A DNA stretch of 64,000 nt from Candidatus Tayloriibacteriota bacterium (GCA_028286665.1 JAQBRD010000031.1:155-64154), one strand, 5' to 3'; positions 16,088-51,679 are shown, counted from the stretch's first letter. Made by a program: numbers and translations. Notes: generated from the sequence alone by a model not told the origin.

Positions 16088-16603
16088 GTGCTTGAGCGGT
16101 TTCACTTTTTCATAAGAGGCTGCTATATTGGATTCATGAATACGGCACCGCATCTATCGGCACGATCGACTTCGCTCGAACAGACATCGGAAATCGCTCG
16201 GCAATGGCTCGAGGCGATCGCTGCTTCGCCTGTCTCAGCTTCAGCGATAATCATCGGCCTCGATGGAAACCTCGGTTCGGGTAAGACGACTTTCACGCAG
16301 GCTGTCGCGCGGGAGCTCGGCGTCGCCGAACAGGTGACGAGCCCTACGTACGTGATCCAGAAATCCTATGCGATATTGAATCCGAGATTTTCCGCTCGTT
16401 TCAGCCGACTCATCCATATCGACGCGTATCGTCTCGAAGAGGCAAGCGAGCTCGAGGTTATCGGTTTCAGGAAGCTCGCGGCAGATCCGCGGAATCTCAT
16501 CCTCATCGAATGGCCTGAAAGGGTAGCAGCCCTCCTGCCTGCGGACATGCGCACGGTGCATTTCGCATTCGTCGATGAGACGACTCGAAGCATCGAATAT
16601 TAG
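16088..16603 (+). CDS. tsaE: tRNA threonylcarbamoyladenosine biosynthesis protein TsaE (YjeE-type P-loop)
   Basis: The protein has IGLDGNLGSGKTTFTQAVAREL, VTSPTYVIQKSY and IHIDAYRLE. The true start is probably the internal Met at about 16136. Confidence 0.8.
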   Translation: MLERFHFFIRGCYIGFMNTAPHLSARSTSLEQTSEIARQWLEAIAASPVSASAIIIGLDGNLGSGKTTFTQAVARELGVAEQVTSPTYVIQKSYAILNPRFSARFSRLIHIDAYRLEEASELEVIGFRKLAADPRNLILIEWPERVAALLPADMRTVHFAFVDETTRSIEY

Positions 16604-17733
16604 AAGGGAATCAGTGCGCCGTTCTTATACGTATCGAGCTCTACCGGCGTGGTGCTGACCTGGTGGGTCGGGAGGAACGTGATCGGACCATTTGCGGTCG
16701 AGAATGCATGAGACTCTATATATGAGGAGACATCGGCATTGTTTCCAGTCTTCGCGATTGCTTCGGCGAGGACATAGACGGCATCGTATGATCGATTCGC
16801 GGACTTCGCAGAATCGGCATTGAATCGCGCGTGGTATCGGGCGATGAATGCAGGCGTGCTCGCTTCCCAATTGAGGACGGTTATTCCTTCGAGGAGCGAT
16901 CGGTTGTCTGCGGTGAATCCGTCGTACGAGCCTGCGTAGGTGATCATCTTCGACGTGAAGCCGAGCTCCTTCGAGCGCATGAGGAAGTTCACGGTGTCTT
17001 TGTCGACCATGTCGAGAAAGACGGTGTCGACGTGCTGCTGCTTCAATTTGGCGATAGTGGTTTTGAAGTCATTGGTATCGAAAGCCGTGTACGCTTCGTC
17101 GATGATCACGCCCTTGCCGATCTCTTTCGTTACCTGCGCGATGGTCTTCGCGATCTCTGTGCCGAAGGTTGATTTGAAATGGACGACGGCGATCTTCTGC
17201 ACGTCGTCGCGCTTCAGATAGCTCGTGACGCCGCGGATGACTTTGCTGAAATCAGTGAGCATCGAGAAGCTATTCGCATTGAATTCGAAGCCGCCTTCGA
17301 TCCTGAACTGCGTCGGCGTGATCAGGGTTGTCTTGCTATTGAGGGCAAGCGGAAGCATCGGCTGGGCAACGAAATCCCAGAGGCCGCCGATGACGGCATT
17401 TGCGTTGTCGATGCTCGTGAGCTTCGTGAAAGCCGAAACCGCGGATTTCGGGTTCGTCTGATCGTCTTCATAGATGATCCTCACTTGCCGGCCGTCGATG
17501 CCGCCTGCTGCATTGATCTCTGATGCCGCGAGATCCATGCCGTTCTTGGCGTATTCGCCGAAGCTTGCCGCCGGACCTGTGAGCGAAATGACGGCGCCGA
17601 TGACGATCGGGTTTGCTGACGCATTGCTGCCGGAATCGGCAGGGGATACGCTCGGCTTATTGAGCGCGATGACTGCTCCCGCGATGAGCGCTGCGAGCAC
17701 TATAGCTGAAATGATTGCTGATGATTTTTTCAT
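16600..17733 (-). CDS. Membrane-anchored LivK-type (PBP type I) substrate-binding protein, copy 1
   Basis: There is an N-terminal anchor, followed by IVIGAVISLTGPAASFGEYAKNGMDLAASEINAAGGIDGRQVRIIYEDDQ, which is typical of the branched-chain amino-acid binding family. No permease or ATPase gene is adjacent. Confidence 0.8.
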   Translation of the reverse strand: MKKSSAIISAIVLAALIAGAVIALNKPSVSPADSGSNASANPIVIGAVISLTGPAASFGEYAKNGMDLAASEINAAGGIDGRQVRIIYEDDQTNPKSAVSAFTKLTSIDNANAVIGGLWDFVAQPMLPLALNSKTTLITPTQFRIEGGFEFNANSFSMLTDFSKVIRGVTSYLKRDDVQKIAVVHFKSTFGTEIAKTIAQVTKEIGKGVIIDEAYTAFDTNDFKTTIAKLKQQHVDTVFLDMVDKDTVNFLMRSKELGFTSKMITYAGSYDGFTADNRSLLEGITVLNWEASTPAFIARYHARFNADSAKSANRSYDAVYVLAEAIAKTGNNADVSSYIESHAFSTANGPITFLPTHQVSTTPVELDTYKNGALIPF

Positions 17734-17851
17734 ATGTATATATTGTTGGCGGTTAACCTGCCTATGTGTCTGACTTGCTATAATCCTACATCAATGTCAC
17801 AATATGTATATAGTTCGGCGAAAAGCGAATAACTATATATAACAACATATA

Positions 17852-18631
17852 ATGACAAACGAAACCTTTCTGGATACGCTCGGATTGAAGCCGGTGCCGA
17901 AAAGAGTGCTCATGAGCATCGTCAGCCATGGGGTTTCTACCGTTGCGGATCTGGCCTCGCGCCTCAATATTCCAAAATCATCAGTGTATGATGCGCTCGA
18001 TATGCTCGTCGGGGAAAGCCTCGTGAACGAATATGGAGATGAACGAGGGAAGACATTCGGCATTTCTGACAAAGAGCAGCTCGCTCGCGTGCATAAGAAA
18101 AAGATGGACGAATTGCAGGGCGCGCATTCGGCGCTGCTGTCGTTCATTCAGAATCACGGCGCCGATGACAGCGTCGCCAAGCCGAAGATGAAATTCTATG
18201 CAGGAACGCTCGGGATGAAGCAGGCTTTCCGCGACATGCCATGGTCGAAGAAATATACTGAGACATATCTTATGTGGCCGATGAAGGACATGCTTGATTC
18301 GCTCGGCGAAGAATTCCTCCATTGGCATGGGAAGCAGCGCTTTCAATATGATGTGATCATCAATTGCATCGAGAAGCATAGCGATCGGTCGCTGCAGCAT
18401 GGAAAGGGCGACAAGTACGCATGGCTCGAGAACAACCTGAAGAAGAATCTCGCGCGGATACGTTTCATGCCGAAGGGAACTGATTGGAAAATGAGCTATT
18501 GGATCTATGGCGACAAATGCCTATTTGCGAGCGGCGGCAGCGAAAAATTCGCCTTCATAATCCATAGCAAGGAATTCAGCGACATGATGAAGCTCATGTG
18601 GCAGAGCGTATGGGAGAAGGCGAGGGACTGA
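17852..18631 (+). CDS. TrmB-like HTH transcriptional regulator, paralog A
   Basis: The N-terminus is a winged HTH (LMSIVSHGVSTVADLASRLNIPKSSVYDALDMLV). The C-terminal domain is homologous to four other ORFs in this window. The gene is divergent from SBP copy 1. Confidence 0.7.
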   Translation: MTNETFLDTLGLKPVPKRVLMSIVSHGVSTVADLASRLNIPKSSVYDALDMLVGESLVNEYGDERGKTFGISDKEQLARVHKKKMDELQGAHSALLSFIQNHGADDSVAKPKMKFYAGTLGMKQAFRDMPWSKKYTETYLMWPMKDMLDSLGEEFLHWHGKQRFQYDVIINCIEKHSDRSLQHGKGDKYAWLENNLKKNLARIRFMPKGTDWKMSYWIYGDKCLFASGGSEKFAFIIHSKEFSDMMKLMWQSVWEKARD

Positions 18632-18634
18632 TAT

Positions 18635-19219
18635 TTATTCGAAGACCGATTTCCTGATGAGGTCGGCTTCATCAGTGAAGATGTGCGATCTGATGCCGAC
18701 GCTCTCGGCTGCTTTCACATTCTTTTCCTGATCATCGAAGTAGAGGCAATCGCTCGGGCGTATGTCATGCTCAGCAAGGATGCTCGTCCATGCGCGAATG
18801 TCTGGTTTGACGAAGCCGGTCTGCCAGGAGAAATAGACCTTATCGACTGCCTCGTGGACCCATGGATAGCTGCCGTAGTACTCGGCACGCTCCTTGAAGT
18901 TGTTGGAGAGAATGAAGACTTTGATGCCCTTGCCGCGGAGTTCCTTCGCGAAAGCGACCATGGCATCTGAAACCTTTTCAGCTTTGAACCAATAGTCCCA
19001 GAATTCTTGCTCGGTCAGATTGATATTCCACGCTCTGAGCGCAGGTTCCCAGTAGTCGAATGATCGGCCGGCGTTTGGCTGGCGCGATTTGGCCATGATC
19101 TCGGAAAGCTTCGGGACGAATTCTGAAACAGGAATGCCGAAATCCTTCTCGAACCGCTCGCTGAGCTTCGGTGCTTGGAGGAATATGCCGTTAAGGTCGA
19201 AAATGATTGCTTTGTTCAT
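18635..19219 (-). CDS. HAD-superfamily hydrolase
   Basis: Motif I reads IIFDLNG, the sequence includes VFILSNN, and motif IV reads YFDDQEKN. Confidence 0.6.
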   Translation of the reverse strand: MNKAIIFDLNGIFLQAPKLSERFEKDFGIPVSEFVPKLSEIMAKSRQPNAGRSFDYWEPALRAWNINLTEQEFWDYWFKAEKVSDAMVAFAKELRGKGIKVFILSNNFKERAEYYGSYPWVHEAVDKVYFSWQTGFVKPDIRAWTSILAEHDIRPSDCLYFDDQEKNVKAAESVGIRSHIFTDEADLIRKSVFE

Positions 19220-19224
19220 TTCTT

Positions 19225-19575
19225 TTATTCTTTGCCGACGATGAGATGCAGGTGGAAATGCGCCGGGACTGACTTGTTCTTCGTCGTTGCCTCTATTATA
19301 TAGTCATATTCAGGATGGACAACGGCTGCCTTGAGTTGCTGGTATTCTTTCAGCTCTGCTTCATTGAGGCCGGTTTCCGTTACGTGTCTGATCGGAATGA
19401 GCATATGATGCGTTTTTGCGATGAGGTCGTAGGGGAATTTGTTGCCGGTTATTTTCCAGTGAGCGAATGTTCTTAATGCAGGCTTTTCGCAAAGAGGGCA
19501 CGCGCCGCTCGGAGCAGCGCTCTGCTGGTATTCCTTATGCTGCTGCTTCATTTCCGGTGTTCGCAATGAGGGCAT
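19225..19575 (-). CDS. HIT-family (histidine triad) protein
   Basis: A CPLC zinc-binding motif is followed by the C-terminal histidine triad HFHLHL. Confidence 0.7.
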   Translation of the reverse strand: MPSLRTPEMKQQHKEYQQSAAPSGACPLCEKPALRTFAHWKITGNKFPYDLIAKTHHMLIPIRHVTETGLNEAELKEYQQLKAAVVHPEYDYIIEATTKNKSVPAHFHLHLIVGKE

Positions 19576-19610
19576 GTTTTTCGTGGTTAATTATTGATGA
19601 ATGGCAGCAT

Positions 19611-20366
19611 CTATTTTGCACCGAGCAATTCCCAGGTTGATATAAAAAGATTTCGAAGCATTGTTGCGATAGCTGGGGATTCGATGATGATCGCATATAT
19701 TTCATTTTCCTTGAAGGAAAAGAACGCCGTTTTCTTTCCATAAATATCAAGCGTTCCGTTGATGGGCGAGTGGGATGGAAGCATGCGCGTTTCACGATAT
19801 GCATTCGTCACAAGTCCTGGGTCTTTCGGTCCTGATGAGCTGGCCGTAATGAGATACGAATATATCTTAAGCTTTTCTCTGCGTTTCAGCCAATTCGGGA
19901 AATATTTCGGAAGCACCTTCATCATGTCGAGATTTGAAAAAGCATGAAGCTCTCTGTTGTTCTCCTGCTCGAGCGTTTCGAGTATGTCTTCCCAGACGAA
20001 TTTCACGCCATCGATTCCCGTATAGAGCTTCGCTGCAGGAACGAGCATGCCGTGCCCGCGAATATCCATCAATTCTGGAACAATGGATCTCATCTTCGCT
20101 TCCTTTTCCTGCTGCATCTTCACGAGCCTGTTCGGACTCTCGGCAGAATAGTAGACGACATTATTTTTCTTCCACGACGAAACATATTTCTGATGCATCA
20201 GCGAGTCGAGCGTGTGGTACGCCGTCGTGCGAGCGATGCCTGTCTCTTTCGCCAAGCTGAAAGCAGTTGCTTCGGCATATTTGAGCAGGGCAGTATAGAG
20301 GGTCGCTTCATTTTCGCTGAAGCCGCATTCTTTGAGTATTTTCTGAGTATTCATAATAGCGTCCAA
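19611..20366 (-). CDS. TrmB-like HTH transcriptional regulator, paralog B
   Basis: The HTH reads LYTALLKYAEATAFSLAKETGIARTTAYHTLDSL, and the C-terminal domain is shared with the other paralogs. The gene is divergent from SBP copy 2, with the HIT and HAD genes downstream on the same strand. Confidence 0.7.
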   Translation of the reverse strand: MDAIMNTQKILKECGFSENEATLYTALLKYAEATAFSLAKETGIARTTAYHTLDSLMHQKYVSSWKKNNVVYYSAESPNRLVKMQQEKEAKMRSIVPELMDIRGHGMLVPAAKLYTGIDGVKFVWEDILETLEQENNRELHAFSNLDMMKVLPKYFPNWLKRREKLKIYSYLITASSSGPKDPGLVTNAYRETRMLPSHSPINGTLDIYGKKTAFFSFKENEIYAIIIESPAIATMLRNLFISTWELLGAK

Positions 20367-20467
20367 AAAACGGACTACTTCTAATATCTATAATAAGCTT
20401 TAAATATAATACTAAATAGGCATTTGTCAATATATTTTTAAAATACAAGGACTAATCCCACGCGATC

Positions 20468-21595
20468 ATGTATGTTGGATGGATGAAAAGAAATATATAC
20501 ATAGCCATTGCTGCGCTTGCCGTCTGCGGGCTTTTTGTCGCATTGCATATCAGTCCGAAGCGCCAGCCTGTTTCTATCGGATTCGTCGGACCTTTCACTG
20601 GAAATTCAGCATTCTTCGGAGAGTATATGCAGAGAGGCCTTGATATTGCCCGCAGCGAATATTCCGCCGATGATATTTCGCGAGTGAGGATCATTAAGGA
20701 AGACGATGCCTGTTCAGCAAAGAATGCATTAAGTGCGGTTCAGAAACTGATTTCAGTCGATCATGTGAAATACGTCATCGGCCCGCTTTGCAACGAATCT
20801 TCTGTCGCGACAGAGCAGCTGTTCGAAGATAGCCGTGTCATATCAGTGACGATCGGCCTCCCGTCGAACAAGATCGCGAATATGGGGCCATATCATTTCT
20901 CATTCTCTCCAGAAATCGAATATTTGATGAAGGCCATAAGCGGAGAAATTATTAAGAAGAAAATAACGAGAGTGGCGGTGATCCATATGATCGGAGCTTT
21001 CGAGGATGAGAATTATCGGCATTTCATAAAATATCTTTCTATGGGCGGCGTTTGGCTGGCGGCAGATGTTTCTGAAATAAAAGGCACGACCGATTTCAAA
21101 GCATCAATCCTTAAAATAAAGCAATCGAACCCGGATGGCATCATGATCGTCGCTCACACTGCCGAATTGAACAATATTCTCAAGCAGATGGACGCGCAAG
21201 GTCTTCGCGGGCTTCAGAAGTTCGGTATTCATGCTGCTGAAACCAAATTGCTGCTCGAGCAGAAAGACATCGCTGAAGGTTTCATCTACCCGTATCCTGG
21301 CGATGATGCCGAAAGCCAATCTGCAAAATCATACGCTCAGAAATATGCCGATGCGTATCATGCGGCGCCAGACCCTTCTTCGGTAAATGTCTATAACAGC
21401 TATAAGATACTTATTTCGGCAATCGGTGAGTGCGGGTATGAAAACAGCGATTGCGTTCAGCGTAAGTTATCTCAGCTCAAGGATTTTCCTGGAGCGAGCG
21501 GAAGCCTGTCTGTCGATGAGAGGGGAGTCGGCACATATAAGCAAATCATGCTGAAGACAGTGCATAATGGAAAATTCGAAAAGCTGAGCGAATAG
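20468..21595 (+). CDS. LivK-type substrate-binding protein, copy 2
   Basis: The protein has VSIGFVGPFTGNSAFFGEYMQRGLDIA...RIIKEDDACSAKNA. The N-terminal anchor carries a possible lipobox (LAVC). Confidence 0.8.
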   Translation: MYVGWMKRNIYIAIAALAVCGLFVALHISPKRQPVSIGFVGPFTGNSAFFGEYMQRGLDIARSEYSADDISRVRIIKEDDACSAKNALSAVQKLISVDHVKYVIGPLCNESSVATEQLFEDSRVISVTIGLPSNKIANMGPYHFSFSPEIEYLMKAISGEIIKKKITRVAVIHMIGAFEDENYRHFIKYLSMGGVWLAADVSEIKGTTDFKASILKIKQSNPDGIMIVAHTAELNNILKQMDAQGLRGLQKFGIHAAETKLLLEQKDIAEGFIYPYPGDDAESQSAKSYAQKYADAYHAAPDPSSVNVYNSYKILISAIGECGYENSDCVQRKLSQLKDFPGASGSLSVDERGVGTYKQIMLKTVHNGKFEKLSE

Positions 21596-21600
21596 CATTT

Positions 21601-22509
21601 TTACTCGGTATTCTTCTTGAAAAGGATTTTCGCTTTGAAATCGGGTATGGCGATCAGCGCCTGCTCGATTGATCGGACGAATTCGAGTTCTGGCCAATCG
21701 TCGGGGTGCTTCTCGATCTTCCAGCGGAGGGACGTGAGGATCCGGACGAGGACGAGCGTCTGGATGTCATGCATCATCAGATCGAGTTCCTCGGGTTCGA
21801 TCCCGTATCCTGCGATGAATTCATCGACATTCTTCTTGCCGGTATTCCAGGCGAAGATATCGGCGAGTTCGCCGTGCGGCGCCCGGCTGCCGCTCGCGGT
21901 TCCCCAATCGATGACATATATGTCGCCATCAGGGTGGACGATGGTATTCTCCGGGCCGAGATTGCCATGGCAGAGCATCGGCAGATAATGCCACCCTTTG
22001 ATCTCATCTACGCGTGCGCGCATGTCGGCGATCTGCGTCTCGGTAAGAAGCTTGTGCTTCACGAAGAATCCGTCATCGAAAAGCTGCTCGTCGATCCAAG
22101 TGAGATCGATCTTGTATTCCTCGGCTGGAATCGTATTGTACTTCTTCGCATAACTGCCGAGGGCGCGCCATATGCGCTTGGTTTCATCATGCATGACTGT
22201 GCCGCGGATCCCGGGAATGAATTCCTGAAAGGAGTACGCATACTCTTCCTCGATGCCGACCGCAAGCGGCCTCGGGGTCGGTATGTGCAGCTGGAGGGCG
22301 GCATTCATGCACCATTCTTCCATTCTGTAGGTCTTGAGCGCATCATGGGATTTCTGCATGCGGAGGATGCACATCCTCTCTTTAAGGGATATCCTGAAGA
22401 CGACATTGATGACGCCTTGGTCTATGATCTCCTCGACAGCCGCGGGAATCTCGCCGAATTCCTTTTCGGTGATCTTGTATATGAGTTCCTGCATTTCTGG
22501 CGGTGTCAT
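21601..22509 (-). CDS. Aminoglycoside/choline-kinase-like phosphotransferase (APH/protein-kinase-like fold)
   Basis: The catalytic-loop motif is CHGNLGPENTIV, and IDWGTASG is the DFG-equivalent (IDW). I take the start at the internal Met (MTPPEMQ), 78 bp from the divergent polA start. Confidence 0.65.
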   Translation of the reverse strand: MTPPEMQELIYKITEKEFGEIPAAVEEIIDQGVINVVFRISLKERMCILRMQKSHDALKTYRMEEWCMNAALQLHIPTPRPLAVGIEEEYAYSFQEFIPGIRGTVMHDETKRIWRALGSYAKKYNTIPAEEYKIDLTWIDEQLFDDGFFVKHKLLTETQIADMRARVDEIKGWHYLPMLCHGNLGPENTIVHPDGDIYVIDWGTASGSRAPHGELADIFAWNTGKKNVDEFIAGYGIEPEELDLMMHDIQTLVLVRILTSLRWKIEKHPDDWPELEFVRSIEQALIAIPDFKAKILFKKNTE

Positions 22510-29656: not shown

Positions 29657-30457
29657 TCATATTTTCTTTGCCCGAAAGACGACGCATGTCGGCACCATGC
29701 TGCTTGCTGTGGCAGAATAGATCGGCGAATACACGTCGAGCGGTTCCGTATCCTTGTCGGGCTTCGGCTCCCAGAATCCGTCGACGGAGAATCCTGCTTC
29801 GGTGAGCATTCTGAACCAGTCGCTTGGGCGGAGCTGGTGCGTTTCTATAAGCTGTCCGCTGCCTTTCCAATTTTCACGAAAAAGCGGCATCGGTTCGTGA
29901 TAGCTTTTGCGTACGACAAGCTTACCCTCTTCAGTTTCTATGATTCGGCTGAGGTAATGATCCCAGGAGAATATGAAATATCCTCCGGGCCGTAATTTCT
30001 TATGGATCTCACCAAACAGCTTTTCGGGATATTCCGACCATCCGATGCTGTAGACCGCGATGACGCAGTCAAAAAGGCCATATGGAAGCGCTTCGTCCAT
30101 CGCCTGCTGTATCAGCGTGAAGCGCTTAGGGTATCCGCTGCTATTTTTCGAAGCAGCAGCGATTCTCATTTCAGCGATTTTCTTCTGTGCTGAGCTGAAA
30201 TCGATTCCGGTCACATGAGCGGCACCGTGTTTCAGAAGATATGCGATAGAATCTCCAGAGCCGAAGCCTATCTCGAGAAACTTTCCCCCTTTGATCTCGG
30301 GAATGATCGCGACATCTTTCATTTCGCCATTCGTACCCCACGAAGGAAGGGAAGTTCCTCCTGCGTATTGTTTCGCGACGAAGTCCCAGGCTTGCTGATG
30401 ACTCTTCAGGGTAGCTCCTTGCGGGCAGGGGTCGCTCTGGGCGCGTAATTTATTCAT
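29657..30457 (-). CDS. Class I SAM-dependent methyltransferase
   Basis: Motif I reads FLEIGFGSGDS, the sequence includes VTGIDFS, and motif II reads FDCVIAVYS. Confidence 0.7.
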   Translation of the reverse strand: MNKLRAQSDPCPQGATLKSHQQAWDFVAKQYAGGTSLPSWGTNGEMKDVAIIPEIKGGKFLEIGFGSGDSIAYLLKHGAAHVTGIDFSSAQKKIAEMRIAAASKNSSGYPKRFTLIQQAMDEALPYGLFDCVIAVYSIGWSEYPEKLFGEIHKKLRPGGYFIFSWDHYLSRIIETEEGKLVVRKSYHEPMPLFRENWKGSGQLIETHQLRPSDWFRMLTEAGFSVDGFWEPKPDKDTEPLDVYSPIYSATASSMVPTCVVFRAKKI

Positions 30458-30593: not shown

Positions 30594-31388
30594 GTGAGCA
30601 AAGGGTGGTATAAAAACGTCATGGAAAAAGAATTACTTGGGCATCTGATCGAGCTCGGACTTACGGAAAAAGAAGCCCGGCTCTATGTCTGGCTTGTGGA
30701 GCGCATCGAGACTACCGGCTATGAGGCGAGCATCGCGCTCAAGATCCCTCGAGGCACCGCGTACACCTTGCTCGAAGGTCTTGTTCGGAAAGAAATCGTC
30801 CGAGCAGGAACGCAGAACAAGAAACGCGTATACACTCCTGAATCGTTTTCAGTGTGGAAGAAAAGTCTTCAGGAAAAGATGAATATTGCTTCCTCGATGC
30901 TTCCGCTTCTCGAGAGCATGGTCTCAGTCAAAGGTCATAGCATCGATGTTCGTCTTTATAAGGGAATGTCTGGGGTGCAGAAGGCCTGGGATGAAGTCAT
31001 CGAGCATTTCGAAAAAAATCGCGTCGACACTTGCTTTGCAGTAAGTCATGGATCTCAGATCTACGCTGCGATGCCGAGGTATTTCAAGCGATGGATCGAG
31101 CGTCGGGTGGCGAACAAGACCGAGGCATATCTGATTTACCCGCTTGAAGACAAGAATGCGGTAGAGAACGGCTCCATTAGGGAACCGCTCGCTCAGTATA
31201 AATTCGCGCAGGGCGAGGCGCTCGCTTTCAGCGGAGACGTCACATGCGGAGGAAAGATCGCCGCTATCTTCTCATTCGACAATAAGCAGGAGCCGCACGC
31301 AGTGATCATCGAATCCGAAGACATTTCGAAGATCTTCACGCAATGGTTCAGAACCTTGTGGCACGTTCTACCGGGAAAGAATTTCTGA
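30594..31388 (+). CDS. TrmB-like HTH transcriptional regulator, paralog C
   Basis: The HTH reads LYVWLVERIETTGYEASIALKIPRGTAYTLLEGLV, and the C-terminal domain is shared (AVIIESEDISKIFTQWFRTLW). Confidence 0.7.
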   Translation: MSKGWYKNVMEKELLGHLIELGLTEKEARLYVWLVERIETTGYEASIALKIPRGTAYTLLEGLVRKEIVRAGTQNKKRVYTPESFSVWKKSLQEKMNIASSMLPLLESMVSVKGHSIDVRLYKGMSGVQKAWDEVIEHFEKNRVDTCFAVSHGSQIYAAMPRYFKRWIERRVANKTEAYLIYPLEDKNAVENGSIREPLAQYKFAQGEALAFSGDVTCGGKIAAIFSFDNKQEPHAVIIESEDISKIFTQWFRTLWHVLPGKNF

Positions 31389-33761: not shown

Positions 33762-33778
33762 GCGCGACACCAAGCTGC

Positions 33779-34543
33779 TTACTTTATTCCTTCCCAGATT
33801 CCCTTGAAGAGCTCGCGCATGTTGTGCGCGAGTTTTGCGTCATAGATCTGCACGAGATAGTGCGGTTTCTGATTGGTGACGATGAGCGTCAGGTAATCGC
33901 CGGTGACCCATGTGGTCGCAGTGAAATCGCCCTCGCCGTTCCAAAATTTGATGATGCGGTTGCTGTAGCCGCGCTTGCTCATGTCAGCTTCGAATTTCGA
34001 TTCGTTGCTGAGCAGACGGAGCGACAGCTTGCTCGGCGCACACTTCTTCCAATACCAATCGATCCATCCCTGGTAGCTTTTCACGAAGCTCGGATCCTGG
34101 AATCCCCACCAGATGCTGTCGTTCTTCAGGATGCTCTGACTCCATATCGGCGCCTGCTTCTCCATGAATGCCTCGATGTCCTCCTCATAGACGAATTGTA
34201 TCTTCGGAATGGAATAGCGCGTGTTTTTCGTAATGTCTTTCAATGCGTCGACAGCCTTGCCGATGAGCACCTTCTTGTTCTGAAGCTCGAGCTCTTCCTT
34301 CCGGATCATTTTCTTCAGATCCTCCGGCGGCAGGGCAGTGAGGTAGTTCTGCTTTCCGCCGACGTCTTCGACGATGATTCCTCGCGCGATGAGCTCCTTG
34401 GCGATGCTGTAGGTGGTCGAGCGGTTGATGCCGGTGAGGCGGGCGATGTGCGCCGGCGTCGCATGGCCGAGTTCAAGTACGGCGAGGTATGTTTTGACCT
34501 CCTTTTCTTTCAATCCGAGTTCTTGCAATATTTGTTCAATCAT
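33779..34543 (-). CDS. TrmB-like HTH transcriptional regulator, paralog D
   Basis: The HTH reads VKTYLAVLELGHATPAHIARLTGINRSTTYSIAKELI. The gene is divergent from the 34811 ORF and SBP copy 3. Confidence 0.7.
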   Translation of the reverse strand: MIEQILQELGLKEKEVKTYLAVLELGHATPAHIARLTGINRSTTYSIAKELIARGIIVEDVGGKQNYLTALPPEDLKKMIRKEELELQNKKVLIGKAVDALKDITKNTRYSIPKIQFVYEEDIEAFMEKQAPIWSQSILKNDSIWWGFQDPSFVKSYQGWIDWYWKKCAPSKLSLRLLSNESKFEADMSKRGYSNRIIKFWNGEGDFTATTWVTGDYLTLIVTNQKPHYLVQIYDAKLAHNMRELFKGIWEGIK

Positions 34544-34810
34544 GTCGAAATCATAGCGTGTTGTTATAAAATTGTCAACACATAAATATGCTTTAAATAA
34601 AGGTTTAAATTAAAATATATGAGTATATTGTTATATGTAATTAGTCATGATTATGAAAATTGTGCAATAATAATGCCAGAAAGTAAATAGTACTTTGAAA
34701 CATCGGTTCCGGAAACAGGCATGTCACGCAAGGCCTGTCTATTCCCGGAACCGATGCTATCGATAAGCTCCCATGCGGGATGACACGATGCCTCAGTAAG
34801 GGAATAAATT

Positions 34811-35149
34811 ATGAAAAAATACACCGGAATCGAAATCCCGACCGAAACCATAACCCCTTGCCATGAGTTTCACAGCGCGAAAGCATTCGTGGTCAAGGTC
34901 GGGGACTTGTATTATCGCATCGAACGCAAGGCGAAGTTGCTTCACGAGAAGGACGCTAAGGCAGGTTCTTGGCCGTTCGGCTGGATGTATCGCTTCGAAG
35001 CAGTACAGATCGAGTCGCCGGAACGCGAGCTAGATTTCGCTCTGCAGCAATTCATAGGGGAGAGACTCGCGCAAGGTCTAATGGCCGGGGATCTGACGGA
35101 CTTTACCTGCCAAGGTTCTGCTGGCGCGAAAAAAGGTGGGTGGAGTTGA
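34811..35149 (+). CDS. Hypothetical protein (112 aa) with structured leader
   Basis: The ORF is preceded by an aggg RBS and by a long hairpin at 34694-34750. Confidence 0.4.
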   Translation: MKKYTGIEIPTETITPCHEFHSAKAFVVKVGDLYYRIERKAKLLHEKDAKAGSWPFGWMYRFEAVQIESPERELDFALQQFIGERLAQGLMAGDLTDFTCQGSAGAKKGGWS

Positions 35150-35254
35150 GAAAACAAATGGAGGATCCTCAAAAAATCCTCCACTTTATTGAGTTCACGA
35201 CAGTGTGTCGCGGATTCATAGAGTCCTTATTTATTCAATAAAAAATTTAAAAAT

Positions 35255-36373
35255 ATGAATACCAAATCATTGCGGATTCTCTGTTCCATCCTTCTCCTAG
35301 TCATCATCGTCTTCGCTGTCTATAAGGGCAGCAAAGGAAATGAAGCATCTGGAGACATAAAGATCGGGGGTATCCTCATCATGAGCGGCGGCGGCGCAGC
35401 TTGGGGCGACGGATCGAAGAGCGGCATGCAGATGGCTGTCGAGGATATCAATAAGAATGGGGGAGTCAACGGAAGAAAGCTCAGCCTTGTTCTGGAAGAT
35501 GATGCGGGAGATCCGAAGAAGGCCATCAGCGCCTTCTCGAAGCTGACCAACTCGGACGGAGCAAAATTCATCATCGGTCCGAATTGGTCTAATTCCGGAC
35601 TCGCACTCGTTGATTTGGCGAAGAATAACAAGGCTGTCCTCATATCTCCGACACTCGGCGTGAAAGAATTCAATGAAGGAAGCGAAAACATATTTAACAC
35701 ATGGCCGCACGACTTCATCCTTTCGCGGAACATCGCTGACTATGTGTACAAGAAAGGATATCGGAATGTCGCGATATTCGGACTGCAGGATTCGTGGGTA
35801 TATGATCAGACGAAGAATTTCAAGGAAAGGTTCGAAGAGTTGGGCGGCAAGGTCGCGTTGGTCTATGAGCCACAGGCGACTGAAACAGATATGCGCGCAG
35901 GAATAACTAAGGTGAAGGCTGATAAATCGATCGATGCGATCATTATGACCGTCGCCGGCTATAGCCAATCGCATATCATGCCGCAGCAGATCCGAAGCCT
36001 TTCGGTAAACCTTCCGATCTTCTCGGTCAACATCGACAAGAAATCGATTCATGATTGCGGAGCAGCTTGTGAAGATATGATCTTCCTCAGTTATTTCACT
36101 CCGAATAAGCAGTTCGAAGCGAAATACAAGGCAAAATTCGGAGCCGAGGTGCTGATAGGCGCCGATTCATCTTATGACGCGGTGATGCTTCTTGCGAAAG
36201 CGATGACTGAAACGAAAAGCACTGATGTTGCGAGCGTCTCCAAGTATCTGAATGCGGTGAAAGAATATGATGGAATGTCGGGCAATCTGAAGTCGGATGG
36301 GAAGAGGGCTTTCATAAAGCCGTACACGGTGAATAGGGTGATGAAGGGGGAGCCTGTAGCCATAGTAGAATAA
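35255..36373 (+). CDS. LivK-type substrate-binding protein, copy 3
   Basis: After an N-terminal anchor comes IKIGGILIMSGGGAAWGDGSKSGMQMAVEDINKNGGVNGRKLSLVLEDDAGDPKKA. Confidence 0.8.
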   Translation: MNTKSLRILCSILLLVIIVFAVYKGSKGNEASGDIKIGGILIMSGGGAAWGDGSKSGMQMAVEDINKNGGVNGRKLSLVLEDDAGDPKKAISAFSKLTNSDGAKFIIGPNWSNSGLALVDLAKNNKAVLISPTLGVKEFNEGSENIFNTWPHDFILSRNIADYVYKKGYRNVAIFGLQDSWVYDQTKNFKERFEELGGKVALVYEPQATETDMRAGITKVKADKSIDAIIMTVAGYSQSHIMPQQIRSLSVNLPIFSVNIDKKSIHDCGAACEDMIFLSYFTPNKQFEAKYKAKFGAEVLIGADSSYDAVMLLAKAMTETKSTDVASVSKYLNAVKEYDGMSGNLKSDGKRAFIKPYTVNRVMKGEPVAIVE

Positions 36374-36383
36374 AGCGAAGAAC

Positions 36384-36418
36384 AAAACCGCCGCTCCTTT
36401 CGGAGCGGCGGTTTTGTT
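36384..36418 (+). terminator. Rho-independent terminator
   Basis: aaaaccgccgctcc-tttc-ggagcggcggtttt. Confidence 0.6.
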
Positions 36419-36488
36419 ATTGATTTCGCTCGGGGATTTCTCAAAGGATAAGCTTCCTATGTGAAAGCGTCAGGCTGCCATATAATGG

Positions 36489-39400: not shown

Positions 39401-42104
39401 TGCTGTTGGAACATATCAGGTCTTTGTTTCGGATTCGACCGATGGCGCGAAAGTCGAAACCAATAAGCTCGACCTCGGCGTGTATGAAGCTCGAGTGGCG
39501 GTTCCTACGATTTCTGCAGCTTCGCCAGCGAAAGCTGGTCCGAGCGCGAGCGTCGCCCTGAACGGTACTCATTTCACCGCAGATTCGATCGTGAGGATCT
39601 GGAACGATTCTCAGGAATATTCCGTGACGCCGACGATCGCATCGAGCACGAGACTGACATTCATCGTTCCTGCGAATGCGGTTCTCGGAACATACTCGGT
39701 CAAGGTCCTTGCGGGATCAGTCGGCGAATCAACCTCGCTTCCATTCCAGATTCTTTCCATTCCGAATATCACAAGCATCACTCCGAGATCTCTCGCCAAC
39801 CCTAATGTGACAGGGAAGCCGATCGTTCTTGCAGGCGTCCGCTTCATCGTCGGCCATATGGTAGATGTCGTATTCGAGCCAAAAAGCGGAGCCGCGTCAA
39901 CTCCCGTTTCAGTCAGAGTCGCAAGTTCGACGCGTATCACGCTCAGTGCTCCGGCCTTATCCGTTGGCATCTATGACGTATCTGTCGTCGATGGTTCTAT
40001 CGAAACAAACAAAGTGGCCTTCACAGTATCGAACGGCATTCCGGCGATCACTGCAATGAACCCTCCTGCGGAAGGTCCTGGCGGAACGATAACCGTCTCA
40101 GGCGCAAGATTCGTCGATGGGATCGTCCTGCGGATACTCCCGGGAACGACGGTCATCCCGGCCGCTTCGACCACGGTTGCTGCTGACGGCAGAACACTCA
40201 CATTCATCGTGCCATCCGGACTCGCGGCAGGCAGTTATGCATTGAGAGCTGCAGTTCCTGGCGTGGGAGCAAGCAATGATTTCGTATTCACGATTCTTTC
40301 AGGTCCCGTTCTGACCTCGGCTCAAGCGTCGGGCGGCGATCAGTATTCGATCAGCGGTTCCAATTTCGTAGTTGGCAAGACCGCAACGGTCAATTTCGCT
40401 CCTCGAGCCGGAGGCAGCAGCGTGCTGGCTTCTGCAGTGATCGCATCATCGACGCAGGTAAGCGTGAACGCTGTTCTTCCGGAAGGGAATTACGATGTCT
40501 CGATGACTGTCGATTCCGTGACCACGAACAGAGTCATATTCTCGACTAACCCTCCGATACTGACATCCTTTACAACGGATGCGCCGGTACCAGATCAGCC
40601 ATATTGCGACTCGCCGAGTCCGGTGACCTTCACTGTTACGGGCAGGAATTTCCTCGCGTCATCCGTTCTCAAAATAATCGGAGCCGGCGGAAAGGTGTAT
40701 CCATTGAATAACAATCAGGTTTCTGCTGATAAGGCATCTATCTCCGCTCAGTTCAATTACCGATGCGCGACAGCTTCTGACAATGGAGCGGGAACTATTT
40801 CGCAGGGGGCTTATTCGCTCGTCGTCGATGGCCTGAGCCCGATCGTGAGCAATAGCCTTCTCTTCAACATACCTTACCCGATGCGGATCCTTCCGCTCGG
40901 CGTGACGGACGTCATCCAATCGGGTCAGATCGTCCTCGTCGGCTCCATGCAGATATTCCATGTGCAACGAGGCAGCGACTTCACTCAGACTTGGGACATT
41001 TTGGGTTCCGGCGGGTCGCTGTCCTATACTGCGATACTCAGCCGCTTCGATCCGTTCATCGATGTCGCCAACTATACGAATAACACGATCGCATACCAAT
41101 ATAGGAACAGCATCAACGCTTCCGGAGGGGTTGTCGGGTCCGCTTTCAATGTGACTATTCCTACAGCTTCCATTCCTGTAGGAACGTATACATTGAAAGC
41201 AGGATTGAATTATCCAGGAAATCCACCTCGATCGTTGCCGCTCATACCGACTGCGAGCGTGGGAGATGCTAACCTTCCATGGTACGACGCCTCGTATTCG
41301 CCGGGATATCGATATACAGTCGGATTCTTGATGGTTGAGGATGCTGCCGCAACGGCGGCTTCAGTCAAGAAAACGCAGAGCGCAGCATCGACGCCTCTTA
41401 CGCTGAGCGCCCTTATCAAAAATGCCGCATCGACATCGACATCAGCTGCGAAGATCGTCGCTCCCGTTTCAGCTCCTGTCTCTGTTCCTGTTCCGAAACC
41501 TGCTACATCAACTCCGGCAATTTCAATTGCAGCTACCACAAGCTCAACAATTTCGATCCCGTCAGCTCCGACCCCAGTTCCAGTAGCGCCGATTCCAGTT
41601 CCTGCGCCGACACCCGTACCAGCTCCGGTTCCTGCGGTCATGCCGATCACTATCCTCCCATGGTCTGCACAAGCAACCATCCAGGCAGGGAAGTCTCTCC
41701 CATACACGCTTAATTGGAGCGGCGGTCCTACGGAGAAGACTTGGAAATCATTCATCCATGTCGTGAAGGGCGATGGCACGACTGTCGCGGCAGATGCATA
41801 CTATCCTTCTACTCCGACGACCCAGTGGTCTGGAAGTCAGAATTTCAGTAGCTCAGTGGCGATACCTCCGACGCTTGCTCCAGGTACGTATCGGGTCATG
41901 GCCGGTCTCTGGATCCCTGTGGGAACTACGCCGTCAGCTGATTTGAAACTCGTCCCAGGATCCGGCGTGACGCTCGATCCGGCATATAGCGCACATTATC
42001 GATACCAAGTCGGGACGATCACGGTGACGTCGCCGTCATCAGCGCTCGGAGCGATGATCAGCGCGCTCGGCGATGACTTCATCTCGCGTTTCTTCAGCAG
42101 GTAG
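36489..42104 (+). CDS. Giant modular surface protein (1871 aa): signal peptide, Fn3-like modules, about 9 IPT/TIG-like Ig repeats, zincin metallopeptidase-like domain (HEVGH...DEY, M64-like), Pro/Thr/Ala-rich linker, C-terminal domain
   Basis: The signal peptide is MDMKKIAVFLGILAVAFSGFFAV. Repeats of about 85-90 aa of the form P.I.S..P........I.G..F..G..V.F.P..G.......V.S.T.I....P..L..G.Y.V.V recur about nine times. LAQATLHEVGHAFGRLRDEYI matches the HExxH(x7)DEY pattern of family M64. A PVPAPTPVPAPVP linker follows. Confidence 0.75.
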   Translation: MDMKKIAVFLGILAVAFSGFFAVKHDAQASSMGYIESSCIYYGYQSNGNTFSETRFWDMPITDAMPAPQNLGTLIATYAASKPAGDRSESRQNNSTSKLAYPVGCQKYSGFFTYKVMSMVLSTDDSVRFSDGNTVRDYAGPVSAVDEVMTSHADKLTFNVIPKFRGPATTLAASVSGNQVTLAWSNPFPAKSLAMTSYVAAVERARAGSNSFVQVSPALDQSFSMPYSNIGNYTKFFTPQLTYTDTSAPEGDFDYRIRIDMSFQTATGEFYVNGGSSQDGYYAKTYHYSTVASAKLPPKAPKLASISPNSFSVDATETPPVTIAGTGFKPTGNSIKFVHATIAGKVYRIDDVSSAGTSLAFDLPAGMTQGAYNVTTKVTDSPWSNELTVRVLPKSPAALTAKFVFTDTKKGIDLDWSGGAANSIVSGYEVERASGYRADSAEYKKISETTGKTAFDANLNLLTTKDIFYRIKTKFTDGTSVTSNVASVPACQKIAGNGPVKVVFMRDKKISEDLKVDAFYGVVLNTIKLGFRRTDPFKAYANKFSFYIDLEEYDTYDDWSMPEGTAKSQSECGKDAKIYIYYSTKVGKTAYSYFNSGEVYMMPFDLLPTAGFDNLIDYEKKIRLLDSSASSSLILAQATLHEVGHAFGRLRDEYIRSTEPEPSSLSVFDSVNCSTKPSSDFRSSINNQIYGSLTSVGCSYLKAYTGHAGDTSNTFYKPSKASLMDTIHATKNPDGTYITYSRISSPRFNVISCGYLISAILGEPTDKAHAQTHWQECATELDTETDTPPLAGKPGTLKSSSSIVYPGNAIKSSANSVSKMNSVPTSSDRNSLIISGSGFTPEGNNIRFANTATKKVFEINEVPSIDGKTLQLDIPNDTDPGTYNVRVGAFNSPWSDAISLQVLDFPKIASFSPASITLSELSKPILIKGSNFIVGHTVTVSFAPKSGGSAIISTAKVATSTKISVIPPASLAVGTYQVFVSDSTDGAKVETNKLDLGVYEARVAVPTISAASPAKAGPSASVALNGTHFTADSIVRIWNDSQEYSVTPTIASSTRLTFIVPANAVLGTYSVKVLAGSVGESTSLPFQILSIPNITSITPRSLANPNVTGKPIVLAGVRFIVGHMVDVVFEPKSGAASTPVSVRVASSTRITLSAPALSVGIYDVSVVDGSIETNKVAFTVSNGIPAITAMNPPAEGPGGTITVSGARFVDGIVLRILPGTTVIPAASTTVAADGRTLTFIVPSGLAAGSYALRAAVPGVGASNDFVFTILSGPVLTSAQASGGDQYSISGSNFVVGKTATVNFAPRAGGSSVLASAVIASSTQVSVNAVLPEGNYDVSMTVDSVTTNRVIFSTNPPILTSFTTDAPVPDQPYCDSPSPVTFTVTGRNFLASSVLKIIGAGGKVYPLNNNQVSADKASISAQFNYRCATASDNGAGTISQGAYSLVVDGLSPIVSNSLLFNIPYPMRILPLGVTDVIQSGQIVLVGSMQIFHVQRGSDFTQTWDILGSGGSLSYTAILSRFDPFIDVANYTNNTIAYQYRNSINASGGVVGSAFNVTIPTASIPVGTYTLKAGLNYPGNPPRSLPLIPTASVGDANLPWYDASYSPGYRYTVGFLMVEDAAATAASVKKTQSAASTPLTLSALIKNAASTSTSAAKIVAPVSAPVSVPVPKPATSTPAISIAATTSSTISIPSAPTPVPVAPIPVPAPTPVPAPVPAVMPITILPWSAQATIQAGKSLPYTLNWSGGPTEKTWKSFIHVVKGDGTTVAADAYYPSTPTTQWSGSQNFSSSVAIPPTLAPGTYRVMAGLWIPVGTTPSADLKLVPGSGVTLDPAYSAHYRYQVGTITVTSPSSALGAMISALGDDFISRFFSR

Positions 42105-46503: not shown

Positions 46504-46511
46504 GTCAGATA

Positions 46512-48014: not shown

Positions 48015-48098
48015 AGTTCAATATGGCTTTGCTGGTTTCGTTTTGAACATTAACACTAACGATTGGGTTCCGCAACAAAGAAGAAGCGCTGCTCGAAC

Positions 48099-48527: not shown

Positions 48528-48615
48528 ATCTACATTTTATCACTTTTGAGTCGCTTGAGTAAGGCACCTATCAAAGTCATGGTACAATTTTTGTATTATC
48601 AATAGTAACTCATCT

Positions 48616-48906: not shown

Positions 48907-48911
48907 TATCC

Positions 48912-49649: not shown

Positions 49650-49650
49650 C

Positions 49651-50397
49651 TTATTCCTTCGGAAGCGTATCCCAAATATAGAGAAACATATTTTTGAACA
49701 TGTTTGCGAAAACGACTGAGTCTATCGTTGCCGCATACATTTGATGGTCTTTTATCGCGAACAGCGTCGATTTGCTTCCGCTGATATATATCGAGCTCTC
49801 AATGGGGTATGAGCCGGGCATGACTTTAGTTTCACGCAATCCATTTTTTTCATAGCCGAGTGTATTGTCGCCCTTGTTTAGAACAGGACGAATTATTCTT
49901 ATTGAAATGCCGTGCTTTTCTCTTTCCTGAATCCAGCTATCGCTAATCTTTGGAAAAATGTCAGTAAAATCAGGCCTAATGAAAGAATATATCGTGTTGG
50001 TTTTCTGCTCGATAGCATTTTCAAGTACTCCGTTCATGGCTATCTTCACACCTTCTTTGCCCGTATAGAGCTTTGCGTAGGGAAGCACCTCGTTCTGTTC
50101 TGAGTATGTCTTCAATTCAGGAATCAATTCTTCAAGAATTGTCTTCCTCTCGTTGTACTTCTTCAGAAGCAGATTGGGACTTTCTGGAAAGAAATATGTG
50201 ATCGTATTTTTCTTCCATGAAGATATGTAGCCTGATTTCTCCAGAGCCTTGAGAGTGTGATACACGCTAGTCTTCGGAAGCGAAGTATCCGCAGCTATTT
50301 TGAATGCTGTAGCGTCTTTGAGCTTGAATAGTGACAGATAGACTCGGGCCTCTTTCTTTGAAAAGCCCATTTCCTCAAGATTTTTGGTTATATTCAT
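49651..50397 (-). CDS. TrmB-like HTH transcriptional regulator, paralog E
   Basis: I take the start at MNITKNLEEMGFSKKEARVYLSLFKLKDATAFKIAADTSLPKTSVYHTLKALE, and the C-terminal domain is shared. The gene is divergent from SBP copy 4. Confidence 0.7.
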   Translation of the reverse strand: MNITKNLEEMGFSKKEARVYLSLFKLKDATAFKIAADTSLPKTSVYHTLKALEKSGYISSWKKNTITYFFPESPNLLLKKYNERKTILEELIPELKTYSEQNEVLPYAKLYTGKEGVKIAMNGVLENAIEQKTNTIYSFIRPDFTDIFPKISDSWIQEREKHGISIRIIRPVLNKGDNTLGYEKNGLRETKVMPGSYPIESSIYISGSKSTLFAIKDHQMYAATIDSVVFANMFKNMFLYIWDTLPKE

Positions 50398-50410
50398 GAC
50401 AACTATAGTA

Positions 50411-50429
50411 TAGTCCATATTTTGGACTA
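50411..50429. promoter_or_regulatory. Palindrome TAGTCCA-TATTT-TGGACTA immediately upstream of TrmB-like paralog E (candidate operator)
   Basis: A perfect 7-5-7 inverted repeat with the same TATTT spacer as the palindrome upstream of paralog C. Confidence 0.4.
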
Positions 50430-50527
50430 AATCAACTGTTTAATATATGGCTAATAATATAGACGTAAGTATATTACATATTAATAAAGTCCAAATACGA
50501 AGTATTTATTGACAAAATATAATACTA

Positions 50528-51679
50528 TTGTTCTATAAGAATAAAGAACATATGAAAAAATACATCATTTCTGGCCTAGTTATATTGGTTCTTTCGGGGA
50601 TTTTGTTTGGAATTACGAATCAGCGTGGTTCATCTTCAGCAGTTACTATTGGCTTTCTCGGATCTTTGACCGGTGTAGATCCTAATTACGGAGAGGCGAT
50701 GAAAGGCGGAGTTTCGATTGCGGTGGATGAAATCAATGCTGAAGGTGGAATTGCCGGCAAGAAATTAGAGGTAATTTATGAAGATGGCAAATGCATCGAT
50801 ACCAAGTCAGCGGTGAGCGCTGCCCAGAAACTAATCACAATTGATAAGGTCAATATTATCCTTGGCGGGGGTTGCAGCAACGAGGCTTTGTCTATCGTAC
50901 ATCTCCTCGAAGAATCAAACACACTTCTGCTTTCATCTGGGGCGAGCAGTCCCGCGCTATCAGGCTTGAGCAAGAATGTCTTCCGAAATGCCCCAAGCGA
51001 TGCGCAGACCGGAGAAAAGATCGCGGCATATATGTTTTCAAAGCATTTTCGAAAGGTCGCAATCGTGTCTGATCAAACTGATTATTCAAAAGGCTTCAGG
51101 GATTCGTTTTTGAAATCCTTCGCAAATCTTGGAGGGTTTGTTGTCGAAGATATATCCGTTTCGCCAAAAGGTTCGGATTACCGGACCGATCTGGTTAAGC
51201 TAAAAGGAAAGGAAATCGATGCCATATTCATCAATCCCAACGTACCCGTCAGTGCTGGCATTATCGCAAGACAGGTGAGGGAGCTCGGGATGAATCAGCA
51301 GCTGTTTTTCGCCTATCACGCAACTCCTGATCTGGTCAGAACCGGTGGGGATGCCGTCAACGGTGCGGTAATAATCAATGTCCCGACTCCAGAGAATGAT
51401 GCTGCAAAAAGAATCCTCAAGCGATTCGAAGAAAAATACGGCAAGAGCACAGTCTATCCATACAACACGCTTGCCGCATACGATGCTGCAATGCTCATAG
51501 CTCAAGGGATAAAGAAAGCTGGCAGCAAAACGGAAGATGTTCGGTCGTATTTGCACGAATTGAAAAATTTCACCGGAGCGCTTGGCTCATATCACTTCGA
51601 TGAGAGAGGGGATATCCAAGACCTTCAGTATCGATTTGAAAGGGTTGAGGGCGGAAAGTTTGTCGATATTGTGGAATAA
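50528..51679 (+). CDS. LivK-type substrate-binding protein, copy 4
   Basis: After an N-terminal anchor comes VTIGFLGSLTGVDPNYGEAMKGGVSIAVDEINAEGGIAGKKLEVIYEDGKCIDTKSA. Confidence 0.8.
   Translation: MFYKNKEHMKKYIISGLVILVLSGILFGITNQRGSSSAVTIGFLGSLTGVDPNYGEAMKGGVSIAVDEINAEGGIAGKKLEVIYEDGKCIDTKSAVSAAQKLITIDKVNIILGGGCSNEALSIVHLLEESNTLLLSSGASSPALSGLSKNVFRNAPSDAQTGEKIAAYMFSKHFRKVAIVSDQTDYSKGFRDSFLKSFANLGGFVVEDISVSPKGSDYRTDLVKLKGKEIDAIFINPNVPVSAGIIARQVRELGMNQQLFFAYHATPDLVRTGGDAVNGAVIINVPTPENDAAKRILKRFEEKYGKSTVYPYNTLAAYDAAMLIAQGIKKAGSKTEDVRSYLHELKNFTGALGSYHFDERGDIQDLQYRFERVEGGKFVDIVE

Follow-up and report, generated by a model that had tools for sequence, protein, structure and literature searches.

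Several substrate-binding proteins (SBPs) per Liv translocator, and SBP genes that lie away from permease genes, are already known among importers of the ATP-binding cassette (ABC) class. In Escherichia coli LIV-I, LivJ and LivK both feed LivHMGF, and in Rhizobium leguminosarum the BraC3 gene reportedly lies away from the permease genes, its translocator BraDEFG being encoded elsewhere. Control of ABC-importer SBP genes by TrmB regulators in Thermococcales and the architecture of TrmBL2 are likewise established. Here we describe a 64,000-nucleotide stretch of DNA (the window) from Candidatus Tayloriibacteriota bacterium (GCA_028286665.1 JAQBRD010000031.1:155-64154), which carries genes for four membrane-anchored SBPs of the LivJ/K type, S1 to S4, and for five TrmB-like regulators, R1 to R5. 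A Liv translocator is encoded in the same genome and, judging from sequence, we consider it likely that substrate-specific, individually regulated SBP cassettes feed this one common LivHMG(F) translocator. What is new is the combination of known parts into many cognate cassettes of a TrmBL2-type regulator and a LivJK-type SBP, expanded in a reduced genome of the Candidate Phyla Radiation (CPR), together with a sharply conserved element ahead of R1. Full-text searches found no paper linking TrmB with Patescibacteria or the CPR, and the arrangement is not described in the papers on transporters or SBPs in CPR lineages examined among the matches.

The likeness to LIV-I lies in the translocator, as the CPR LivH, LivM and LivG are clearly homologous to their E. 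coli counterparts, and in the binding proteins, whose nearest solved relatives are LivJ and LivK. However, where LIV-I has two free periplasmic SBPs, this genome has at least ten, N-terminally membrane-anchored and encoded partly far from the translocator genes, and in place of Lrp control there are dedicated divergent TrmB-like regulators. The R. leguminosarum cases of the BraC3 type are not known to have either a paired TrmB-like regulator or a comparable expansion in a reduced genome.

On the regulatory side, TrmB of Thermococcus litoralis/Pyrococcus furiosus (operon of the trehalose/maltose, TM, ABC transporter) resembles the proteins studied here in being a TrmB-family helix-turn-helix (HTH) regulator encoded within the gene cluster of an SBP-dependent ABC importer. 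TrmB acts at a palindromic site in an SBP-gene promoter, which at malE reads TACTN3AGTA (PMC4158304). TrmB and the window regulators have in common the HTH family, an invariant recognition-helix tyrosine that appears to correspond to Tyr50 of TrmB, a long helix and a PLD-like subdomain. In contrast to TrmB, with its 338 residues, the window regulators have 247-259 (~250), lack the C-terminal sugar-binding part and belong to a CPR bacterium; their partner is an SBP of the LivJ/K type (Peripla_BP_6) rather than a MalE-type sugar SBP, and there are at least eight such paralogs, each with its own SBP (R3 excepted). TrmBL2 (PF0496/TK0471; PDB 5BPD), an archaeal chromatin protein, has the same architecture of winged HTH, long helix and PLD-like domain. 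Yet TrmBL2 is a single, abundant and largely non-specific DNA coat, whereas here many divergent paralogs are locked to specific neighbours, and identity is only 12-15%.

The cassettes and the Liv translocator

The window is bacterial and starts near dnaA/dnaN, and its proteins match exactly the NCBI entries MDB5259689-MDB5259720, which derive from a 64,590-bp contig of a metagenome-assembled genome (MAG) of Candidatus Taylorbacteria (Paceibacteria, CPR) with locus tags JWO73_. The original prediction, drawn from the sequence alone, had named nine open reading frames (ORFs) as five TrmB-like regulators and four membrane-anchored LivK-type SBPs of type I. All nine are present, and both family assignments stand. 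The regulators all exceed the gathering score of Pfam PF01978 (TrmB HTH; 34.9-50.7 bits against 25.6, E 1e-8 to 1e-13), in agreement with the fold search, and S1-S4 match Peripla_BP_6 (PF13458) over ~320 residues each at E 1e-40 to 1e-55, behind hydrophobic N-termini. The NCBI starts of R2, R3 and R5, given here with the other features, differ slightly from those first proposed.

16600..17733, minus strand: S1, membrane-anchored LivJ/K-type SBP (MDB5259689), partner of R1; Peripla_BP_6 at E 1.2e-51
17814..17831, plus strand: TTCGGCGAAAAGCGAATA, conserved element in the S1/R1 spacer, candidate R1 operator, kept at 31/31 R1 orthologs examined
17852..18631, plus strand: R1, regulator of predicted TrmBL2 architecture (JWO73_898, MDB5259690), assigned from PF01978 and predicted fold
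19611..20354, minus strand: R2, TrmB-like regulator (MDB5259693), ORF extendable to a TTG at 20366; PF01978 at E 1.6e-13
20468..21595, plus strand: S2, membrane-anchored LivJ/K-type SBP (MDB5259694), divergent from R2; Peripla_BP_6 at E 1.1e-39, with anchor
30621..31388, plus strand: R3, TrmB-like regulator (MDB5259702), unpaired with any SBP in the window; PF01978 at E 1.9e-11
33779..34543, minus strand: R4, TrmB-like regulator (MDB5259705) of a widespread ortholog group, cognate of S3 by sequence comparison; PF01978 at E 9.4e-13
34811..35149, plus strand: ORF of 112 residues between R4 and S3, without a Pfam match, followed by a hairpin at 35156-35186
35255..36373, plus strand: S3, membrane-anchored LivJ/K-type SBP (MDB5259707); Peripla_BP_6 at E 5.7e-54, with anchor
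49651..50418, minus strand: R5, TrmB-like regulator (MDB5259720); PF01978 at E 4e-13
50528..51679, plus strand: S4, membrane-anchored LivJ/K-type SBP, start uncertain (TTG at 50528 or ATG at 50552); Peripla_BP_6 at E 1.9e-55

The SBPs had been proposed to be orphans, each a receptor rather than a transporter subunit. Locally, the absence on which this rested is real: tblastn and hidden Markov model (HMM) searches found no LivH, LivM or LivG homolog in the 64-kb window, no permease or ATPase gene adjoins any of the four SBP genes, and the sole ABC gene present is an exporter-type fusion (25908-27701). By its own terms the proposal would be refuted by such genes in operon-like linkage elsewhere, and a search with the LivH-type permease of a related cluster led to permease and ATPase genes so linked in the same MAG. 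LivH (MDB5259260), LivM (MDB5259259) and a LivG-type ATPase (JWO73_462) all lie on another contig of 59,784 bp (JWO73_462-473), and the locus-tag prefix common to this contig and the window places both in the same MAG. Additionally, the LivH accession is 430 below that of R1, and sequencing run SRR13312974 yields contigs with both loci, the Liv cluster and R5. Identity to the E. coli proteins is 29% for LivH (4e-33), 33% for LivM (5e-43) and 36% for LivG (1e-54). LivH and LivM carry PF02653 (BPD_transp_2), and JWO73_462, annotated 'hypothetical protein', carries PF00005 and the PF12399 tail (BCA_ABC_TP_C). Thus, the window SBPs are not orphans, as a Liv translocator is encoded in the same genome.

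On that contig (locus L009) the Liv genes are interleaved with six SBPs, JWO73_464 and JWO73_471 among them, and three TrmB-like regulators, in the order TrmB<- ->SBP SBP / SBP<- ->TrmB LivH LivM SBP / TrmB<- ->SBP SBP LivG. Every SBP or Liv gene there follows a divergent promoter region from which a regulator gene also starts. In all, the genome encodes one LivHM-G set beside at least ten such SBPs and at least eight TrmB-like regulators. As to operon layout at this locus, the six SBP genes and LivH, LivM and LivG fall into three short operons, each reading from a divergent promoter in common with a TrmB-like gene, and one regulator gene immediately precedes LivH-LivM in the same direction.

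Relatives show the same association. A scan of species-representative genomes with an alignment of R1 orthologs gave 41 loci, which were annotated with local HMMs for the regulator, the SBP, LivH, LivM and LivG/F. Another Taylorbacteria genome (L003) has, at its R1 ortholog, a 17-kb cluster of nine Peripla_BP_6, four TrmB and two BPD_transp_2 genes with one LivG-type ATPase gene, and a JGI contig (L004) carries a cluster of the same kind. LivH/M lie within 10 kb in 12/17 R1-ortholog loci flanked by 7 kb or more on each side; several other R1 loci, like the window, are without them. Within 20 kb, Liv clusters of relatives can contain as many as 12 SBPs and 5 regulators, so that the scattered copies of the window, first thought unusual, are not so within the lineage, where arrays are denser. 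Many loci with typical Paceibacteria Liv/TrmB clusters (L010, L013, L014 and others) are titled 'uncultured Candidatus Saccharibacteria', and a 'Bdellovibrionales' MAG supplies one more (L047); such labels are probably due to imprecise or mistaken taxonomy or binning in the source records.

Given these genomes, it is very improbable that the four SBPs are true orphan surface receptors or sensors, each coupled to a ligand-responsive TrmB-like repressor in a one-component-like module. Such a module would account for the lack of a permease or ATPase within 64 kb of the SBP genes, for the location of the cassettes among housekeeping genes and for the few other genomes (L020, L037) with R1-S1 pairs and no Liv genes in 20 kb. 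It leaves unexplained why LivH, LivM, LivG and six paralogous SBPs occur in the same genome and why S1 orthologs stand beside LivH or LivM in many relatives. Additionally, a cytoplasmic regulator needs a membrane partner to receive a signal from an extracellular SBP, and the scanned ORFs of the window include no signalling partner such as a histidine kinase or chemoreceptor.

Cognate pairing of regulators and binding proteins

Three of the four pairs stand head to head across short AT-rich spacers, as had been proposed for all of them: S1/R1 (118 bp, 67% AT), R2/S2 (101-113 bp, 72% AT) and R5/S4 (109-133 bp, 79% AT), in a window that averages 49% A+T. R4 and S3, by contrast, are divergent across a gap of 711 bp, which holds the 112-residue ORF and the hairpin that follows it and thus offers no short common promoter. 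This ORF resembles none of the genes that lie upstream of R4 orthologs. The fifth regulator, R3, had been placed divergent from a pair of SAM-methyltransferase and TrmH genes; it is divergent from the methyltransferase gene (Methyltransf_11, 29657-30457), but the SpoU/TrmH gene beside that gene is on the opposite strand. HMM annotation found no SBP within 4 kb of R3.

That a regulator and an SBP form a real repeated module is strongly supported by comparison across genomes. The SBP is divergent and directly upstream in 26/32 R1-ortholog loci, and over all loci of the R1 scan a divergent SBP lies no more than 400 bp from 61/92 family regulators. S1 orthologs (49-65% identity) are always divergent from R1 orthologs. 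When 56 regulator-SBP pairs were clustered at about 38% identity, regulator groups mapped one-to-one onto SBP groups, R1-type going with S1-type in 24/24. Pairwise distances among regulators and among their partner SBPs are strongly correlated (Mantel r = 0.91, p = 0.001), and for paralogous pairs within one locus Spearman = 0.48 (p = 8e-4). In another assembly (L002) an R5 ortholog, 67% identical, is divergent from an S4 ortholog, 52% identical; S2 has no close ortholog among the fetched loci (best 29%). By these comparisons, the regulator and SBP subfamilies are inherited as fixed pairs across genomes.

The pairing of R4 with S3 is less obvious. R4 orthologs make up 55 of the top 120 family matches, and a metagenome scan for them gave 80 loci (L052-L131), 48 of them evaluable, in which only six R4 orthologs have a divergent SBP. 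In the nine cases with an SBP near the R4 ortholog, the best match among S1-S4 is S3 in 9/9 (37-56% identical). R4 and S3 are therefore also cognate on sequence grounds, a pair lost or separated in most genomes and split by an insertion in the window. A reading of R4 and S3 as chance neighbours had been adopted on the basis of three R4-ortholog contexts without an SBP, and was overturned by these nine matches. The R4 subfamily, one of the two most widespread, probably has other targets in most genomes.

Motif searches of the spacers added a few promoter-like and terminator-like sites. A promoter-like TTGACA-16-TATATT lies on the R2 strand at 20430-20403 (11/12 matches), and a TTGACA-17-TATGAT lies ahead of R4 at 34578-34550. 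Promoter-like sites are not enriched at 16500-21700 (6 against 6.4 in shuffles) and are in slight excess at 33700-36500 (6 against 3.7), where terminator-like sites are enriched (9 against 2.7); a strong terminator-like hairpin follows S3 at 36381-36418. Inverted repeats are present in the AT-rich spacers of R2/S2, R5/S4 and R3, and are not interpretable without orthologs. Rfam searches of the R4/S3 and S1/R1 spacers at permissive thresholds gave chance-level miRNA matches only. Upstream of the 112-residue ORF, in its spacer with R4, there is also a GC-rich inverted repeat (34701-34756) with 21-nt arms that are 86% complementary and 14 nt apart. Beginning ~70 bp past the S3 terminator, a gene at 36489-42104 (plus strand) encodes a protein of 1871 residues with IPT/TIG and other immunoglobulin-like domains, probably a large surface protein.

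Regulator fold and the conserved R1 element

The five regulators can be aligned end to end, with 36% identity between R2 and R5, 29% between R2 and R3 and 18-25% for the remaining pairs. The alignment proposed earlier as a means of dating the duplications thus gives old paralogs, by sequence, at 18-36% identity for the regulators and 24-30% for the SBPs. A profile built from the five sequences matched 9,459 clusters (50% identity) at E <= 1e-10. Lengths of 510-1079 residues occur in some family members (for example P0260, P0268, P0261 and P0289), in which the profile matches 3-7 separate stretches; these look like one HTH with tandem PLD-like copies, or like fused regulators.

The C-terminal ~170 residues have no Pfam match in any of the five, and PF11495, the C-terminal sugar-binding part of TrmB, gave no match at E <= 0.01. 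An AlphaFold model of R1, built from 22 orthologs (pLDDT 85), shows a winged HTH, a helix of ~28 residues and an alpha/beta domain. Foldseek matched this model over its full length to TrmBL2, whose chains made up all the top matches (E 1e-13), and also to TrmB and to the PLD fold. On the strength of this best match, the predicted C-terminal domain is the PLD-like subdomain of the TrmB effector domain, with the last ~70 residues of TrmB absent, which is consistent with the missing PF11495 match. Those residues carry the sugar-binding part of TrmB, and TrmBL2 is without them (PMC4158304). The proposal of a sugar-responsive repressor thus finds no support, as the PF11495 part is absent. Comparing the sequence-only regulator profile with the PDB gave matches to the HTH only; the identity of the C-terminal domain came from the fold search.

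Within the recognition helix, one tyrosine (Y46 in R1) is invariant across all paralogs. Judged by its position in the helix, it appears to correspond to Tyr50 of TrmB, a DNA-binding residue (PMC4158304). The residue that follows it differs among the five regulators (D, H, T, S and H), as would be expected of differing operator specificities.

The S1/R1 spacer offers a candidate for such an operator. The 18-mer TTCGGCGAAAAGCGAATA lies 20 nt ahead of the R1 start codon, within a wider conserved block at about 17770-17835, and forms the core of the dyad ATAnTTCG-N8-CGAATAAn. It occurs once in the window at up to 3 mismatches. At the R1 orthologs examined, whose proteins are only 44-65% identical, it is found with 0-4 mismatches directly upstream of the start codon or overlapping it. 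When the loci are anchored on the element, its spacing is fixed to a promoter-like pair, TTGnnn-17-TAttaT, whereas the start codon lies anywhere from 0 to 110 nt away, and in eight loci an ATG lies 2 nt upstream, such that the element is read as codons (MIRRKANN...). Thus, it is the nucleic acid that is conserved, in register with the promoter and not with the start codon. Two further conserved blocks, TGTCCA and AGTATA, read TGGACA-16/17-TATACT on the other strand, plausibly the S1 promoter, so that the element keeps a constant spacing to promoter-like boxes of both strands. From these boxes we infer that it occupies roughly +5 to +25 relative to the R1 promoter and immediately precedes the S1 -35 box, and regard the dyad as a candidate R1 operator overlapping the divergent promoters.

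As the element is within the transcribed leader or the first codons, it could instead be an RNA element, a 5'-leader hairpin acting on translation or stability, with the real operators elsewhere. A hairpin of 5-6 bp is possible, and variants in three loci (L004, L020 and L036) strengthen its stem. We judge this quite unlikely. The consensus hairpin is weak (-4 kcal/mol, z = -1.0) and no better than shuffles, 40/200 of which are as good; the arms are invariant and so show no covariation; the spacing is fixed to the promoter boxes rather than the start codon; and the region has no match in Rfam. The weak hairpin and the missing Rfam match favour a DNA operator for R1, with the RNA role as its rival.

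A separate question is whether the regulators act on their neighbours at all. Were they nucleoid or global DNA-binding proteins like TrmBL2, or regulators of unrelated genes, their adjacency to SBP genes would reflect inherited synteny and imply no specific control. A chromatin protein is indeed the best structural match, the PF11495 effector subdomain is absent, and R3 and most R4 orthologs have no SBP neighbour. Nevertheless, we hold this to be unlikely. A ~1-Mb genome with at least eight divergent paralogs, whose recognition-helix residues vary, points to distinct specificities, and strict one-to-one pairing in divergent orientation across spacers of about 30-180 bp in dozens of genomes is the pattern of local regulators. 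Additionally, the R1-specific dyad occurs once per locus, at its own promoter.

Proposed mechanism and its significance

We suggest that the window holds four satellite cassettes of a multi-SBP importer of the Liv (LIV-I/HAAT) type, each made up of a membrane-anchored LivJ/K-type SBP and its own TrmB-family regulator. Each SBP would capture a distinct small solute outside the cell, most likely an amino acid or related compound that this biosynthetically poor organism must import, and would hand it to the one common LivHM-G(F) translocator. Each regulator would bind an operator in the divergent promoter region, controlling its own SBP gene and itself, and would respond to ligand, probably with the PLD-like domain as sensor. 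For R1 the operator would be the TTCGGCGAAAAGCGAATA dyad, which closely follows the R1 promoter and lies immediately ahead of the S1 -35 box. A further step, which we advance only tentatively and think doubtful, is that each pair is a co-evolving specificity cassette, the PLD-like domain sensing within the cell the very solute that the partner SBP captures outside, or the immediate product of that solute.

The binding proteins themselves suggest diverse substrates. Each of S1-S4 has an N-terminal hydrophobic 17-mer (Kyte-Doolittle hydropathy 2.7-3.0), and such anchors occur in 119/119 full-length SBPs of the loci examined; no clear lipobox was found in the SBP N-termini, and the hydrophobic segment is compatible with either an uncleaved anchor or a cleaved signal. 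SBP matches in the PDB reach E 1e-22 to 1e-32, with LivJ and LivK nearest to S1, and Leu/Ile/Val and amino-acid SBPs nearest to S4. We take S79, T102, Y202 and E226 to be the alpha-amino-acid contacts of LivJ. On an alignment of ~25% identity, the aligned positions largely differ from those of LivJ and vary widely among the ten SBPs of the genome, only one of which, at 3384-4505 of the L009 locus, is near-canonical. This spread suggests, from sequence, differing ligands among the ten. Ligand assignment from the LivJ contact residues was tried and gave none.

Several observations weigh against the proposed mechanism. TrmBL2, the closest solved fold, is a non-specific chromatin protein without a known ligand. 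A clearly conserved cis element is seen for R1 only; a crude, low-power search for such elements in four other regulator groups (4-6 members each) yielded no more than an A/T run. S1-S4 are mostly non-canonical at the LivJ contact positions, subject to the same ~25% identity alignment, and 'amino acids' as ligands are therefore only a prior. Among evaluable R4 orthologs, 42/48 are without an adjacent SBP, and R3 has no SBP partner. Additionally, LivF was not seen in 13.8 kb around LivHMG of this genome, whereas relatives usually show two ATPase genes at their Liv clusters.

Other genes of the window include PBP1a, TyrRS, RuvABC, PilB/PilM, TsaE, PolA, a Mur ligase and eight tRNAs. Beside ruvB, a protein of 180 residues (11157-11699, minus strand) reaches 28.9 bits with PycTM, the transmembrane domain of Pycsar effectors, marginally above the Pfam cutoff of 27.2; no cyclase was seen beside it. 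The YebC/TACO1 ORF (8381-8911, minus strand; 176 residues) spans about one third of the second Pfam domain, and the ruvC ORF (7825-8547, minus strand) overlaps yebC by 167 nt through a 67-residue N-terminal extension without a Pfam match. A frameshift, a truncation of yebC or too long a call of ruvC could account for this arrangement at 7825-8911.

Members of the CPR/Patescibacteria are thought to live on building blocks scavenged from a host or the environment, and to possess few regulators. At least ten SBPs and at least eight dedicated regulators around one translocator amount to roughly 2% of genes, an investment that points to regulated, substrate-by-substrate uptake as a major effort of this lineage. 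Genes annotated 'Extracellular ligand-binding receptor' without neighbouring permeases are not orphan receptors here, which corrects a tempting mis-annotation. The cassettes also provide testable handles, in pairs with screenable ligands and in a sharply conserved candidate R1 operator. If the tentative reading of the pairs as co-evolving specificity cassettes is true, a cell with about 1000 genes could retune the substrate range of one ABC translocator by switching SBPs on and off, and its TrmB-like proteins, at least eight in number, would be lineage-specific small-molecule sensors that make up a large share of the transcription factors of the genome.

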